Made by a program: the position numbers and the translations under genes
Part shown: positions 26,715 to 32,331 of the stretch, one piece after another
Numbering within the stretch: the first letter of the stretch is position 1
Layout: the number at the start of each line of letters is the position of its first letter
DNA from: a virus
Lineage: Duplodnaviria > Caudoviricetes
DNA length: 64,000 bases
Strand: one strand, 5' to 3'
IMG/VR virus record: IMGVR_UViG_2622736508_000001
The notes under the pieces: generated by a model
Told to the model about the DNA's origin: nothing
The model's database searches: none
The model's input: only the letters and a program-made list of their open reading frames with translations

Positions 26715-27482
26715 TTACTCTCCTTTTCCAAAATAGAATTCTGCCCCTTTTTGCAAGGACGGAGTCTGTTGAGTAGTTACCTGCTGCGCCAAAGCCTTGC
26801 CGAATGCGCCGGCTTCCCCTGCTTTACCGCCGGTACCACCGCCACCGCCGCCAGCGCCCGGGCTCTGCGGGTTAAATACAAATTCCGGATTAGCGTCCAG
26901 CCAGGCCTTGACGCCAGTGGCAACTTCAATTTCCTCTCCGTCGTCCTTCAAGAAAGCAAGGCTGTCATCGTCATTGATTTTGACCTTATCTGCCAGAATC
27001 TTTAAAAGCTGATCCGGCTTGATGGCCTTGTGTTCAGTCAGCGCTGACAGCAATGCCCGGTTGCGCTCGCTCGTTTGGCGCTTGGCGCGTTCTTCGTTTG
27101 CCAGCTTTTCAAAGGCGGCCAACGATTCCGTATTTTTTTTCAGTTCTCGCTGCAGCTTGGCATTGTCGCGCTGCAACTGGGCAATTTCTGGCGCATTCTT
27201 GCCGCCGTTTTTCTCGGCCTGGGCTTTTAGATCAGCCAAAGCTGTATCTAAATCCTCCACATCATCGGCAATACCGGTATGGTCGTGAAACTGTTCCAGG
27301 CGGCTGGTTGTGGCTTTCAGCTTGTCCTCCGTATCCTTGAGGGTTTTTGTTAATGTTTTAAACTGCGCCTTTTGCTGGCCGAGCTCTGCCTCTTTGGCGG
27401 CAATAAGGGCTTTAAGGGCCTCGGCGAATTTTGACCCTTCAGGCAGTTTAGCAAGGGCTTCAAGTAATTGTTCTAATGTCAA
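26715..27482 (-). CDS. Capsid scaffolding protein
   Basis: Coiled coil, Gly-rich C-terminal linker, TTG start with AGGAGG. Confidence 0.75.
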   Translation of the reverse strand: MTLEQLLEALAKLPEGSKFAEALKALIAAKEAELGQQKAQFKTLTKTLKDTEDKLKATTSRLEQFHDHTGIADDVEDLDTALADLKAQAEKNGGKNAPEIAQLQRDNAKLQRELKKNTESLAAFEKLANEERAKRQTSERNRALLSALTEHKAIKPDQLLKILADKVKINDDDSLAFLKDDGEEIEVATGVKAWLDANPEFVFNPQSPGAGGGGGGTGGKAGEAGAFGKALAQQVTTQQTPSLQKGAEFYFGKGE

Positions 27483-27577
27483 TTTGGTGACCTCCTTTGG
27501 TTTTTAGGCAAAATAAAAACGCCTTACGGCGTTATCACAAGTAGATATTCATTTTTTCTCACATCCTTTAAGCCAAC

Positions 27578-27601
27578 AAAAAAACCGCCAGGTTGGCGGT
27601 T
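27578..27601 (-). terminator. Terminator after the putative immunity gene
   Basis: AACCGCCA-ACC-TGGCGGTT followed by TTTTT. Confidence 0.8.
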
Positions 27602-27617
27602 AGTAATAGTTTAGTAA

Positions 27618-27983
27618 TTAAGCTGTTAATGTGGCGGCCTGCTCATTGTCAGTCTTTAAGAATACCCGGTGATTGTCCAGGTCTACAATCAGTTCGCCGG
27701 ATACAACCTTGTCGATATGCGCCCACCAATGACTAAATGGTTGCGAAAAATCCGCCTGGCTAAAATCCATAAACTCATTCATTTCTTGGTAAAAGCTCTG
27801 GGCATTATTTAGCAAAGTCTTATCTGCTAAATCTAACAGCTTTTTTTCCTCTTTTGATAATGACGAATAATTTTGCTCCAAGGTGTCCCTCATGGCAATA
27901 GTGTCCATAAGTTCAATGCCGGAAAGCGCTATGTTCTCAACATCAAATCCATATCGTTTAATTAGTTCTGCGTTAGTCAGCAT
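27618..27983 (-). CDS. Putative immunity protein for the MuF toxin
   Basis: 121-aa acidic ORF overlapping the MuF stop by 11 nt; AT-rich. Confidence 0.6.
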   Translation of the reverse strand: MLTNAELIKRYGFDVENIALSGIELMDTIAMRDTLEQNYSSLSKEEKKLLDLADKTLLNNAQSFYQEMNEFMDFSQADFSQPFSHWWAHIDKVVSGELIVDLDNHRVFLKTDNEQAATLTA

Positions 27984-29544
27984 TGCCCTTCCCTCCTATT
28001 GTTCCCATTTTGGTATACCCTTCTTTAATGCTTAAATGTTCGTCATAGGGCTGTTGGTCAATGATATAGGCCGTTTCCATTATTCCATTTTCGCCGATCA
28101 TTACCATCCATTTGGATTTCCTATGCGCATATACAAAAAAGTTTTGTACAAACCCATTCTTGTGGTATAAATACGTGTCAACATCTTTACTGTTCAATAT
28201 TTCTAATATTTTGCTGTTATAATCTACATCTGTCCAACCTTGAGGTATATGCCCTCGGTTCTTACGCTTTTCAACGTGCTTCTCAAGCTTCCCTGGCTTC
28301 CATTCAGGTCCATCTTCCAGAACTTGCTTCCGTATTTGCTCCGCTGCATTGATCATATTTTCCCTTATTATACCATTGTCTTTACTTTGTTGCAAATAGG
28401 ATTTAAGCTCTTGAACCTTTAACCGCGGCTTCGGATCCACATGCCCCTGCCAGTTCCGCAAGTGTTTCTGCCATTTGCCGTCCTGTTCAAATTGTCGACT
28501 GCCTGCTACGCCCAGCAGCTTCTGCCTGTCGGACATGCTTTGCGCCTTAAGCCAGGCGGCCGCGGCATCAGGATTAAACTTGCCTACAGTTACCTCGCCC
28601 CGGTATAATACCACAAGATTACAGCGGCAGAACGGATGGGCCGGATGCGGCGGCACTTTGTCCTTGGGATAATTGCCGGCGCCCATACCGTAAAGATCCA
28701 CGCCAGCATGGAAATCGCATATGTCAAAGACAGGATGATTGCTAGAAAGTCGCCAGCCATAGCCGACCACGTCCGGATCGTCATAATTTTGCGCATAAAA
28801 GCTGTCCGACCATGCCCGGGACATTTCAGTAGTAGCGATCCGGTCGGCGTAGTAACGGGCCTTTTCCTGCACCGCTACCCACGCAGCTTTCTCCAACGCT
28901 TTCTGATTCAACTTTTGCGCAGCGTCAATCAGATTCTGATAAGCCACCCGCAGCGCCTTGTCCGGTTGGTTCGTTTTCGCCAGTTGCTTTTGAGCGGCCT
29001 TCACAGCCCGGTTAAACTCGCCAAGGATGTTGCGGTCACCGCCGGCGGCTGAGCGGGCAGCCACAACCATCCGGTTTAAGTACTGTGGCAGTTCCGCGCC
29101 GCGCAGTACTTTTTTGCCGCTGTTGTAACCGTCATACAGGTCCATGGATAGCTGCTTAACGGCTTTGCCCTTGCGCATGGCCGCGGCAATGGTATCGACA
29201 ATTGCAGTCCGCATTTGCTTTGAAGTCCCGTGCAGCCGTTTGGACAGCTTCATTTTGTCCGGCGCCCAGGCGTCAGCCAAGATATATTGACGGACCGCTG
29301 TTTTCATTTCCATGCTTGGCGTCTTTATGCCATAGCTGAGTAAAGCAGCAGAACAAATCGACTCGATCAGGTTATTTATGTAGGCAGCGTTGAATCCAGT
29401 CGCTGCCATCGCGGCATCGATGGCAGCGGAAAGCGGTTTGCCGGCGTTGATCTGGCTAATAATCTGGTTGACCAGCTTGTCACCTAAGTCGCCGGCCGTT
29501 CCCATGTACTGCCGCAGCAGCGCCAATAATTCATCCCGCTTCAT
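27973..29544 (-). CDS. MuF (SPP1 gp7-like) minor head protein with a C-terminal toxin-like extension
   Basis: RIATTEMSRA and PAHPFCRC MuF motifs, then about 130 extra aa (KLEKHVEKR...DY...G.METAY) resembling a BECR/RelE-like RNase fold. Confidence 0.8.
   Translation of the reverse strand: MKRDELLALLRQYMGTAGDLGDKLVNQIISQINAGKPLSAAIDAAMAATGFNAAYINNLIESICSAALLSYGIKTPSMEMKTAVRQYILADAWAPDKMKLSKRLHGTSKQMRTAIVDTIAAAMRKGKAVKQLSMDLYDGYNSGKKVLRGAELPQYLNRMVVAARSAAGGDRNILGEFNRAVKAAQKQLAKTNQPDKALRVAYQNLIDAAQKLNQKALEKAAWVAVQEKARYYADRIATTEMSRAWSDSFYAQNYDDPDVVGYGWRLSSNHPVFDICDFHAGVDLYGMGAGNYPKDKVPPHPAHPFCRCNLVVLYRGEVTVGKFNPDAAAAWLKAQSMSDRQKLLGVAGSRQFEQDGKWQKHLRNWQGHVDPKPRLKVQELKSYLQQSKDNGIIRENMINAAEQIRKQVLEDGPEWKPGKLEKHVEKRKNRGHIPQGWTDVDYNSKILEILNSKDVDTYLYHKNGFVQNFFVYAHRKSKWMVMIGENGIMETAYIIDQQPYDEHLSIKEGYTKMGTIGGKGNAD
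28367..28395 (-). promoter_or_regulatory. Internal sigma-A promoter inside the MuF gene
   Basis: TTGCAA-CAAAGTAAAGACAATGG(17)-TATAAT with TGn extension; in-frame ATG at 28356. Confidence 0.7.
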
Positions 29545-30911
29545 GCAGAGTTTAAGTCCTCAGCCTGCTGCGTTTCCTCGGCGCGCCGATCAATGTCTTC
29601 CATGACAGCATCAAACCGCTCCTCCGGCAGGTCGTTAAGATAAACGGAAGCCGCTTTCTTTTTCACCTCAACATCAAACTGTCCGCCGATATTAAGATCC
29701 AACCCTTTGCCAGCATTGTCGAGGGCTGCCGCAACATCAACAATGCCAAAATCATCGGAATAATTGCTGTATAAATCAACCCGGGTGTTTGTCCATAGCT
29801 CAAACACCCGGGCAGTTTCCCGCTCCGCATCTTCGCAGTTCAGGGCGAAGTCGCGGAGCACCTGGTTAGTGTTCTGAAAGTCCCACTCCTTGGCAACTCC
29901 ACTGGTTTTGGTTTCAACGCCGGTCACATGGGAAAGCTCCGCCATACGGTAAATCTCGACAATCAAGTCTTTTCGCTCTTGGCGGAGCTCCACCAACGAG
30001 GACGAATCCGGGGCAGTAAATTGGGGAGAGTTGTGGAGTGTACCGTCATAGACTACGGCATTTTCGGTCCCTGTCACAATTTCTCTTATATCATTCTCAC
30101 TTTGGTTCTCCCCAATTGGATAAGTAAAGACATTAAACGCCTGGCTGCGGATCAGTTCATCAATCTCGGAACAAAGATTGTATAGCCGTTTGTTGGCCTT
30201 GGCGATCGAATAAAATTCCGACTGCGGCAGCACATTTCCGGGTTCGTAGGGCTTGGCGTACAGAGGAACGATCGGCAGCCGCCCCAATGGATGATTGCCT
30301 TCCCTCTTTTCGCCGTTGGCGTCTTGACATTTCCATTTCGTGGTTGTCCATGTCCAGGTTTCCAGTTGTGCCTCGCCAGACTCATTTACCTCTGACGCGA
30401 TTGTATAGGTCATCTCAATCAGCTTGCCGGGCTTGTTCGTTTTATAGCTTTTTACCTGCTTACGCTGCACAATATAGGCATAGGGAAGCGCTCTCTGCCT
30501 TAGGACTTCCGCCATGTTCCCAGGCTGTTCCGCGGCGTTGTCGATAACGATAAAGGCTACGGCTTGCAGTTTGGCGATGAATCCCGCCCGCTTCATAAAA
30601 CGGGCCAGTGATGTTCCCAAAGTGTCGGTATCCTCGGCAAAAGCCGAAAACAATGGATTCTCCCGCCATTCCCGTTCAGGCTCTTTATTAAAAACAGGAT
30701 TGACATGGCTGTTCACTGTTGGCGCCACATAATTTAGATAATAAGCCAGCTCCCGACGCTTAAGATATTTCTCAGGCGTTTCGCGCGGATGCCTGACCAG
30801 ATAGCTGCCATCTTTAAAGCCGCCGGAACCGTAGTATGCACCAGTTAAAAACTGATAATCGTCCAATCCCAACAGCCTATCAATATCTAATACTTTGCTT
30901 GCTTCTGTCAA
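29541..30911 (-). CDS. Portal protein (SPP1 gp6-like)
   Basis: YL.RHPRET.EKY..R...AYYLNY motif. Start re-called at TTG 30911 with GGAGGTG RBS. Confidence 0.85.
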   Translation of the reverse strand: MTEASKVLDIDRLLGLDDYQFLTGAYYGSGGFKDGSYLVRHPRETPEKYLKRRELAYYLNYVAPTVNSHVNPVFNKEPEREWRENPLFSAFAEDTDTLGTSLARFMKRAGFIAKLQAVAFIVIDNAAEQPGNMAEVLRQRALPYAYIVQRKQVKSYKTNKPGKLIEMTYTIASEVNESGEAQLETWTWTTTKWKCQDANGEKREGNHPLGRLPIVPLYAKPYEPGNVLPQSEFYSIAKANKRLYNLCSEIDELIRSQAFNVFTYPIGENQSENDIREIVTGTENAVVYDGTLHNSPQFTAPDSSSLVELRQERKDLIVEIYRMAELSHVTGVETKTSGVAKEWDFQNTNQVLRDFALNCEDAERETARVFELWTNTRVDLYSNYSDDFGIVDVAAALDNAGKGLDLNIGGQFDVEVKKKAASVYLNDLPEERFDAVMEDIDRRAEETQQAEDLNSA

Positions 30912-30924
30912 AATTTCACCTCCC

Positions 30925-32331
30925 TTATACTTGCATGGAAAATCCGACTTTTCGCGGCTGCCAGAGGGCCAAAGCCAAAGCATCGCCAAGGTCAGGCGAC
31001 TTCAAACTGCGTGTTTTCATGTCTTCTTTACGTTCCAGTTCTATTTCACCTTTGGAATTTACGCGATATTTCCGGTTGGTTAACTGACTAATCTGCGCGT
31101 TGTTATACCAAAGCGTCAATTCATCTTGCCGCAGCATTTCGCGGATCAAACCCCACATCAGACCGGTACTATTGGCATATTTAACCGGATCACCTGCGGA
31201 GACTTTACCGCCAGAGCCACCGAAATGTCCTTCGTAAACTTTTACATGCGACATCCGCTGGCTTTTTACGACCTCAGCCACACGGTCATATACACCAACC
31301 CCTAGGCCATCGCAGTCTACCCGCACCGACATGGGGATACGGCCATACTTGCCCGTGTACCGGTCCAGCATCTGTATAGTGCGGCCGGCCAGCTCCATGG
31401 TGTTGTTGTGGTTATAAATTTCCGGTTCCATCTGGTGCCGGCGGTCAAATACCGGGCATAGAACTGACTGGTCATCACCGTACCTGGCAACGTCTGCCCC
31501 TATATCGATGCTGCGCGGAACAATAATCAGCGGTACCTTGACGCTGTTTCTTTCCACCCAGTCAAGCGGAATGAAGCTGTCCGGCATGGCTTTCGGAAAC
31601 TGCCCGGCAACCCGCACCCGGAACACATCGCTGTCCTCGCCAAACATGTCAATGATCATCTGGACATATTTCAGTGATACCCGCGGAGAGTTGCGGCCAT
31701 CTATTTGAAAGGTGCTGTACATTTCCCGCTTGGAATTGTGGCTGTCAAAAAACCAGCCGGCAAGCTGCGTCGGATTACCGCAAGCTAGCAGGCCAGCGCC
31801 TTCCGTAGAAAGCGCCCCTAAGACCGGCTCAAAAATTTTGTCCGCCACGCCGGATGCTTCGTCAATGATATAAAAAACATGATCAGCGTGAAACCCTTGG
31901 AGCGCGTCCGGCTGCGTTGCCGTTCGCGGTACCGCAAACCATTCTTCGCGATGCGCCTTATGGTAAAATCGTTTGTCGGTCCATTCGAACAAAAAGCAAT
32001 CGGCCGACTGACGATTCCATTTGTTGAGTTCGGCCCAGAGAATATCGTGCAGCTGATGCTGGGTTGGCGCAGTACAGGGTACCTTGGGAAATGGCCGCGA
32101 AAACATAAACCACTTTGCAACCCAGCTTTCTACCGCCGATTTTCCAGTACCATGACCGGAACGAACGGAAGTCAGTTGATTATTGGCGCAGCTATCTAAT
32201 ATTTCCGCCTGAACATCGTCCGGCGTAGCACCAATGACTTCTTTGACATAGTCAATGGGATTGTCGGCATAATAGGCCAAAACATGCGGCTGCAATAACA
32301 ATTCCTCAACCGTTAACATCGTTTTGCCCAC
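30925..32331 (-). CDS. terL: Terminase large subunit
   Basis: RSGHGTGKS Walker A, IIDEASG Walker B, GADVARYGDD nuclease motif, SPDLGDALAL. Alternative start at ATG 32319. Confidence 0.93.
   Translation of the reverse strand: MGKTMLTVEELLLQPHVLAYYADNPIDYVKEVIGATPDDVQAEILDSCANNQLTSVRSGHGTGKSAVESWVAKWFMFSRPFPKVPCTAPTQHQLHDILWAELNKWNRQSADCFLFEWTDKRFYHKAHREEWFAVPRTATQPDALQGFHADHVFYIIDEASGVADKIFEPVLGALSTEGAGLLACGNPTQLAGWFFDSHNSKREMYSTFQIDGRNSPRVSLKYVQMIIDMFGEDSDVFRVRVAGQFPKAMPDSFIPLDWVERNSVKVPLIIVPRSIDIGADVARYGDDQSVLCPVFDRRHQMEPEIYNHNNTMELAGRTIQMLDRYTGKYGRIPMSVRVDCDGLGVGVYDRVAEVVKSQRMSHVKVYEGHFGGSGGKVSAGDPVKYANSTGLMWGLIREMLRQDELTLWYNNAQISQLTNRKYRVNSKGEIELERKEDMKTRSLKSPDLGDALALALWQPRKVGFSMQV

Follow-up and report, generated by a model that had tools for sequence, protein, structure and literature searches.

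A putative toxin-immunity cassette fused to a prophage MuF gene, with a predicted promoter in its linker codons

We examined a 64,000-nucleotide (nt) stretch of viral DNA (IMG/VR record IMGVR_UViG_2622736508_000001; Duplodnaviria, Caudoviricetes), referred to here as the window, in which a gene for a MuF head protein is joined in frame at its 3' end to a putative toxin-immunity cassette of low GC content (28395-27583, minus strand). The codons that link the MuF part to the toxin also spell a predicted promoter, and the bases which define it are conserved as DNA at the same junction in MuF genes that bear unrelated toxins. It is probable, in our judgement, that the MuF-toxin cassette is a full transcription unit, which would consist of a sigma-A-type extended -10 promoter in the linker codons, a BECR domain, an immunity gene preceded by a strong ribosome-binding site, and a terminator, and whose internal promoter would supply the immunity protein in lysogens where the late genes are silent. 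The features on which this reading draws are as follows.

27973-29544, minus strand: MuF-toxin fusion open reading frame (ORF), 523 amino acids (aa), from the ORF list.
28390-28395, minus strand: -35 hexamer TTGCAA, codons Leu-Gln, from the promoter scan.
28367-28375, minus strand: extended -10 element TGgTATAAT, codons (Asn)-Gly-Ile-Ile, from the promoter scan.
28354-28356, minus strand: in-frame ATG (Met397) 10 nt after the -10, a possible start of a free 127-aa toxin, from the sequence.
27973-28356, minus strand: predicted RNase toxin domain of BECR fold (colicin-D-like), residues 397-523 plus stop, from homologues, an AlphaFold 2 (AF2) model and fold matches.
28276-28278, minus strand: codon of His423 (after Lys422), candidate catalytic histidine, invariant in a 49-sequence alignment (H45 of alignment A2).
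27991-27996, minus strand: Shine-Dalgarno sequence GGAGGG, 7 nt before the immunity ATG, from the sequence.
27618-27983, minus strand: putative cognate immunity gene, 121 aa, from its synteny with the toxin domain.
27583-27601, minus strand: intrinsic terminator with an 8-bp stem and a T-run, closing the cassette, from the hairpin scan and conserved in the sister phage.

The promoter scan placed TTGCAA, a 17-nt spacer, and TG with TATAAT at 28395-28367 (minus strand; score 10/12), and the -10 is followed by 10 nt (AAGGGAAAAT) and then the in-frame ATG of Met397 (28356-28354). The full pattern TT[GA]N3-N14-TGnTAWAAT occurs once on each strand of the 64-kb window and is therefore rarer than chance promoter-like matches; the sole other copy lies at 765 on the plus strand. 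The region from 27618 to 29544 (minus strand) holds two ORFs of 523 and 121 aa which overlap by 11 nt at the stop of the former. The initial annotation had described this layout, with a MuF motif, a low-GC C-terminus, TTGCAA-17-TATAAT, an ATG at 28356, an overlapping 121-aa ORF and a terminator, and every one of these elements is present where it had been placed.

The same arrangement was found in all MuF fusions of the BECR type, which carry TTG or TTA followed by N3, a 17-nt spacer ending in TGn, and TAWAAT on the coding strand, while the pattern was found nowhere else on either strand in 82 kb of these loci. The length of the spacer is kept at 17 but its sequence is not, and the distance from the end of the -10 to a conserved Trp codon is either 64 or 34 nt, the difference being an exact 10-codon indel further downstream. 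Across five BECR lineages, with toxins only 40-57% identical, the invariant junction columns number 13 of 59 and include 9 of the 10 promoter-defining bases compared with 4 of the 49 other columns (hypergeometric P about 5e-7, from a post hoc test on a junction alignment anchored on the motif). The codon before the -10 is GGT, GAT, GCT or GTT, with bases 1 and 3 fixed and the middle "n" taking all four values. Because this variable base changes the amino acid (Gly, Asp, Ala or Val) while TGnTAWAAT is kept, the pattern points to selection on the DNA. The third base of -10 hexamers is weakly conserved in general, and it is at this base, where A and T both occur, that an Ile/Lys exchange (ATA/AAA) is found.

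We surveyed MuF genes on three backbones, which provided 28 distinct toxin-bearing ORFs and nine toxin-less ORFs (individual loci are denoted by L numbers). The TATAAT that the initial annotation had picked out proved to be conserved as DNA at the junction of MuF homologues with different C-termini, since 24 of the 28 toxin-bearing ORFs carry TGnTAWAAT at the carrier/toxin junction, 80-125 codons after HPxCx[CH]. No more than four other copies occur in 14,790 codons, and the motif is present in none of the nine toxin-less ORFs (Fisher P 6e-6, for sequences that are related to one another). At least six mutually unrelated cassette types have the motif, comprising the BECR family, Ntox50, a weak JAB-like type and three unassigned types. 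In one type, represented by L031 and L039, it is TGg or TGtTATAAT and is read in another frame, where the "n" codon is Trp or Cys; an assignment of this toxin as RelA/SpoT-like was not confirmed by Pfam and was dropped. Taken at the level of sequence, the cassette is a unit of predicted promoter, toxin, immunity gene and terminator, of which the first two are in frame with MuF.

Several further observations were made on these junctions. L040 and L042 have their MuF backbone and junction promoter segment in common and differ in their toxins (weak JAB-like and BECR, respectively), and cassette exchange is therefore possible just downstream of the -10. In L070 and L071 the MuF-toxin frame is contained in a much longer one (809-847 aa), suggestive of fusion with an upstream gene, possibly that of the portal, and the junction motif is still present. 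Near-motifs were seen in L054 (TATAAT without TG) and L043 (TGaTATTAT).

Residues 397-523 had no match at E <1 in Pfam or NCBIfam and none in PHROGs, and 49 members of the toxin family likewise matched no Pfam family, including Colicin_D, PBECR and DUF6883; a profile search of PDB sequences with the domain gave spurious kinesin matches only. An exhaustive HMMER search recovered 90 relatives, the majority being free proteins of 120-135 aa and the others MuF fusions, and in one, an RHS-repeat protein of 2771 aa, the domain stands at the extreme C-terminus, a placement that is the hallmark of a polymorphic-toxin tip. In the 49-sequence alignment (A2) Trp415, His423 and Trp479 are invariant, Arg427 and Tyr442 are near-invariant, and there is a conserved Lys-His...Lys-Arg motif. 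Alignment A2 was too diverse for locus scans, and a smaller alignment (A3) was used instead.

The AF2 model of residues 397-523 (predicted local distance difference test, pLDDT, 90.6; predicted template modelling score, pTM, 0.83) displays a pre-alpha element and a four-stranded antiparallel sheet. Using Foldseek against the PDB, the five best rows were all colicin D tRNase chains (probability 1.0 or 0.99; E 0.008-0.04). In the VIA all-against-all structure search the top eight were all BECR RNase toxins (Z 8.4 to 5.0), led by CdiA-CT O32:H37 (8ey4; Z 8.4, root-mean-square deviation 2.6 over 85 residues) and colicin D (5znm, Z 8.1; a second colicin D, Z 7.5), with P. aeruginosa CdiA-CT, the toxin chain of a Salmonella toxin-antitoxin (TA) complex, CdiA-CT NC101, BrnT and the sequence-specific ribonuclease domain 3ao9 making up the rest. 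An earlier proposal that this C-terminus has a BECR/RelE-like RNase fold is borne out by the model and by these matches, of which colicin D and CdiA-CT are the closest, and they support a colicin-D/CdiA-CT-like BECR RNase fold in a family that is not in Pfam, for which RNase activity is predicted. His423 opens helix 41-51 of the model, which aligns with colicin D from residue 604 onward, and the Lys422-His423 pair is invariant or nearly so. In colicin-like BECR members the catalytic His is located in the pre-alpha element and is often preceded by Lys (bioRxiv 10.64898/2026.08.28.747851). Lys422-His423 of the model fits this arrangement, and we infer that His423 is the equivalent of the catalytic His.

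The domain was also seen in other settings. The head morphogenesis protein of the cultured deep-sea Nitratiruptor phage NrS-1 (L003; AB746912, 2309-3959) ends in the same BECR domain, and its small overlapping ORF, NRS1_34, has a weak likeness to the immunity family (8 bits). A metagenome scan yielded four loci with the toxin domain, with no MuF fusion among them. One of the metagenome contigs (L050; Ga0316613_10003183) has a 514-aa frame that ends in the toxin domain and is followed by a 118-aa immunity homologue; no MuF-type tail sequence is apparent in it by eye (family libraries were not searched with its N-terminal part), and TGgCATAAT with an in-frame ATG is found 16 nt before the Trp codon. 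Toxin frames cut down to 48-110 aa, without the N-terminal His region, are present in Bacillus, Oceanobacillus and Ectobacillus genomes and a metagenome contig (L015, L016, L017, L048), and may be decayed cassettes or orphan immunity loci.

The pairing of the toxin domain with the downstream gene, which the initial annotation had put forward as toxin and immunity, held throughout, with a homologue of the 121-aa protein (98-147 aa) following the toxin domain, and usually overlapping its stop, in 17/17 complete loci whose downstream ORF was examined. Among them are, besides the sister phage, IMG/VR phages of the Pelosinus type and others, as well as two genomes from Bacillota, three of the four metagenome contigs, and free modules of Aneurinibacillus, Paenibacillus, Virgibacillus and Bacillus. 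The partner homologues share the motifs YG.D, SPFE and KP..WWWHLDKV. The 121-aa protein has few database relatives and no match in Pfam, NCBIfam or PHROGs, and its AF2 model (pLDDT 85) is a helical bundle with a hairpin, for which fold searches returned no convincing PDB match (best Z 6.0, to generic helical proteins). The immunity gene has a strong ribosome-binding site in those BECR-cassette lineages that were examined, and terminator-like hairpins follow it in most lineages. The free two-gene modules of Bacillales chromosomes (L009-L014) lie among transporters, peptidases and sugar enzymes and have a toxin with a weak start signal and a partner with a strong Shine-Dalgarno sequence, as in TA modules; three Paenibacillus modules and the Virgibacillus module have a promoter-like site upstream.

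The gene to which the cassette is joined belongs to the head module of a prophage, as the element has an integrase and a CI-like repressor and sits in a 4.13-Mb bacterial genome. The remaining features of this region are as follows.

28420-29544, minus strand: MuF (head morphogenesis / minor capsid) part of the fusion, residues 1-375, from PHROG 1657 and gene order.
28621-28644, minus strand: PAHPFCRC motif of the MuF core, residues 301-308, from the ORF translation.
27518-27533, minus strand: second terminator-like hairpin, before the scaffold gene, from the hairpin scan.

The ORF matched PHROG 1657 (head morphogenesis; E 2.5e-27), with matches to Pfam Phage_Mu_F and TIGR01641 that fell below the family cut-offs, and its MuF part aligns with annotated head morphogenesis proteins and is 30-78% identical to the MuF genes of other phages. 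The order of the module is terminase, portal, MuF, scaffold and major head, with the portal gene at 29541-30989 and the scaffold gene at 26715-27482. P301, H303, P304, C306 and C308 are invariant in the MuF alignment (A4), the ORF continues for >200 residues past PAHPFCRC, and GC content is 0.544 in 28396-29544 versus 0.399 in 27583-28395. MuF genes that are 40-78% identical carry other C-termini, including Ntox50, PBECR2 and DUF6883, and sister phages with a 78% identical MuF have C-termini that are unrelated. The locus accordingly has the parts of a MuF polymorphic toxin system, namely a MuF N-terminus, a shared variable C-terminal domain, a downstream partner gene and a place in a prophage head module. 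The two terminator-like hairpins stand in tandem between the immunity and scaffold genes (27518-27601, minus strand), within what is expected to be a single late operon, and late transcription past them may need read-through or antitermination.

In lytic growth, the full MuF-toxin fusion and the immunity protein would both be made from the late transcript. If SPP1 gp7 is a guide, the fusion would then probably be packaged in the capsid and pass from it into the next cell; the packaging and ejection of gp7 are discussed in PMC10083569. In a lysogen the late operon would be silent, and the internal promoter would read through the toxin-coding part into the immunity gene, with the terminator ending this transcript ahead of the scaffold and capsid genes. 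Lysogens would in this way be protected from the toxin in virions released by siblings; cells without immunity that repress an incoming genome would otherwise be poisoned by the MuF-borne toxin. Transcription of immunity within a repressed late operon is suggested as the role of the promoter because a downstream immunity gene is what all the cassettes have in common, and it is the more likely conserved role because the in-frame ATG is confined to the lineage of the window.

A number of points weigh against this account. Four toxin-bearing MuF genes lack the strict motif, these being two with DUF6883 (L041, L054), one with PBECR2 (L043) and L036, of an unassigned type. The lineages share ancestry and the counts are not independent; likewise, the first examples were already known when the motif and the junction zone were defined, and the choice of statistics came after the pattern had been seen. 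Furthermore, the codon register (G/D/A/V-I/K-I) is the same in most cassettes, and a constraint on the peptide or an inherited junction segment is a possible source of this.

The best-surviving alternative adds to immunity transcription, in the lineage of the window, a second product, whereby the promoter would also give a near-leaderless mRNA for a free 127-aa toxin (Met397-Asp523) together with the immunity protein, to act as a TA, addiction or abortive-infection module while the fusion is injected. We hold this addition to be less likely than not. An in-frame ATG stands at a fixed short distance from the -10, at +10 in the window, the sister phage (L018), L008 and L019, and at +7 in L042, and the junction in phage NrS-1 is TATAAT, 6 nt and an in-frame ATG. 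Free toxins of the family start 22-24 residues before the conserved Trp, which compares with 18 for Met397 (about five later), and the free two-gene modules among the chromosomal housekeeping genes of Bacillales are TA-like; Salmonella Rhs genes are known to use internal starts in this manner (PMC7043789). However, the ATG is absent in the short BECR class (L006, L024, L021-23) and in all other cassette types checked, with no in-frame ATG within 90 nt after the motif in backbone-2 and backbone-3 cassettes. The promoter is kept in these cassettes without it, and its conservation is therefore not owed to the ATG. Met397 may also be a mere helix residue, and the partner has no recognisable antitoxin fold of the DNA-binding kind, as fold searches with its model returned no helix-turn-helix, ribbon-helix-helix or AbrB match. 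Transcription would start ~7 nt after the -10, leaving a leader of 3-4 nt, and translation of the toxin from this message is doubtful because the leader is so short and no Shine-Dalgarno sequence is conserved across lineages. Neither route of initiation works well on a leader of this kind. An internal Shine-Dalgarno sequence, AAGGGA, before Met397 in the window was rejected as a conserved feature, being absent from L008 and L019. The initial annotation had proposed one toxin with two modes of expression; the in-frame ATG keeps this idea alive for the lineage of the window, but it is not supported for the short BECR class or the other types. Its broadest form, in which an in-frame sigma-A promoter at the joint is a general rule of MuF cassettes and a leaderless or near-leaderless message for free toxin makes the cassette of the window both an injected weapon and a lysogen TA or defence module, we consider unlikely.

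An improbable alternative is that there is no working promoter, and that what is conserved is a linker peptide, or a junction segment for cassette exchange, whose AT-rich codons resemble a promoter by chance. The shared register (xxT-ATA-ATx, for Ile-Ile or Lys-Ile) in most cassettes, the promoter segment common to L040 and L042 with their different toxins, and the tendency of acquired AT-rich DNA to contain promoter-like matches are all consistent with it. Yet the encoded residues vary (Gly/Asp/Ala/Val, Ile/Lys, Trp/Cys) where the extended -10 bases do not, the spacer is constant in length and not in sequence, and L031 and L039 have the motif in another frame. In addition, homologous exchange would need more than the ~10 scattered bases that are conserved, and the motif is otherwise very rare (4 other copies/14,790 codons). 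A third explanation, in which the C-terminal domain is an accessory part of MuF for head assembly or DNA ejection and the 121-aa protein its chaperone, would account for the retention of the domain on MuF in NrS-1 and several phage lineages, but is very improbable given that the same domain ends an RHS polymorphic-toxin protein and is found beside its partner in chromosomes, among housekeeping genes and away from phages, that RNase toxins with immunity proteins are the closest to it in structure, that it has the conserved Lys-His...Lys-Arg motif, and that sister phages with a 78% identical MuF bear unrelated C-termini.

Supply of immunity in lysogens from the internal promoter is thus the reading we prefer. 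In papers of 2023 and 2024 the biological role of MuF toxins is still given as unknown, and a promoter conserved at the DNA level within a coding sequence would offer a concrete account of how a lysogen is immune to the toxin of its own phage. It would also mark the cassette as a mobile unit of promoter, toxin, immunity and terminator, able to exist alone in a chromosome or attached to an RHS or phage head protein, and would be a clear case of codons that double as protein linker and transcription signal. In addition, the analysis defines an unannotated family of predicted colicin-D-like RNases and its immunity family.

The nearest known systems are the MuF polymorphic toxins of temperate phages (Jamet et al. 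2017, PMC5576092; Apk2, PMC10083569 and PMC12226406; Bxa, PMC11699363), which likewise have a MuF N-terminus, a swappable toxin, one or more downstream immunity genes and a place in a prophage head module, whereas the toxin and immunity families described here are not in Pfam. Neither a native promoter nor transcription is described for MuF toxin or immunity genes in PMC5576092, PMC12226406 or PMC10083569, each searched for both promoter and transcript terms; in PMC11699363 the term "transcript" is absent and a "promoter" passage, one of three, concerns expression vectors. A literature search for MuF, toxin and "internal promoter" returned nothing relevant. RNases of the PBECR and DUF6883 (BECR-Tox3) families fused to MuF (Iyer et al. 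2017, PMC5512222; bioRxiv 10.64898/2026.08.28.747851) are similar in having a BECR domain on MuF with a small downstream partner. However, the domain of the window matches none of these Pfam models, and it is the DUF6883 and PBECR2 cassettes that lack strict TGnTAWAAT when the MuF backbone is the same.

Colicin D/ImmD and the CdiA-CT tRNases (1tfk, 1v74, 5znm, 8ey4, 6d7y) resemble the cassette in predicted fold, with a helical pre-element and a four-stranded antiparallel sheet, in the Lys-preceded conserved His of the pre-alpha element, and in having a separate immunity protein encoded downstream. The domain of the window differs in its low identity to them (13-20%), the lack of a Pfam Colicin_D match and an extra N-terminal helix, while its immunity protein is helical and has no detectable likeness to known ones, and its delivery would be by the phage capsid and not by colicin translocation or contact-dependent inhibition.

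Internal promoters in Salmonella Rhs genes allow Rhs-CT and RhsI to act as a type II TA module (PMC7043789). The likeness lies in an internal start upstream of the toxin tip and a possible short toxin from a weak start, whereas the usable in-frame start codon here is confined to the lineage of the window. Phage morons are units of promoter, gene and terminator inserted in late operons. The cassette is moron-like as an autonomous low-GC unit between head genes with its own predicted promoter and terminator, but in its case the structural gene before it runs in frame into the promoter and the first gene. Nuclease colicin genes hold constitutive immunity promoters. Internal immunity promoters are also present in the V. 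cholerae type VI secretion system effector genes vasX, tseL and vgrG-3 (PMC3857813). As in these two systems, a promoter within the toxin ORF would express immunity while the delivery operon is off, as judged here from sequence, but the predicted promoter of the MuF cassette lies exactly at the joint of carrier and toxin, is read as linker codons and recurs across unrelated cassettes, and the silent state that it would serve is lysogeny.

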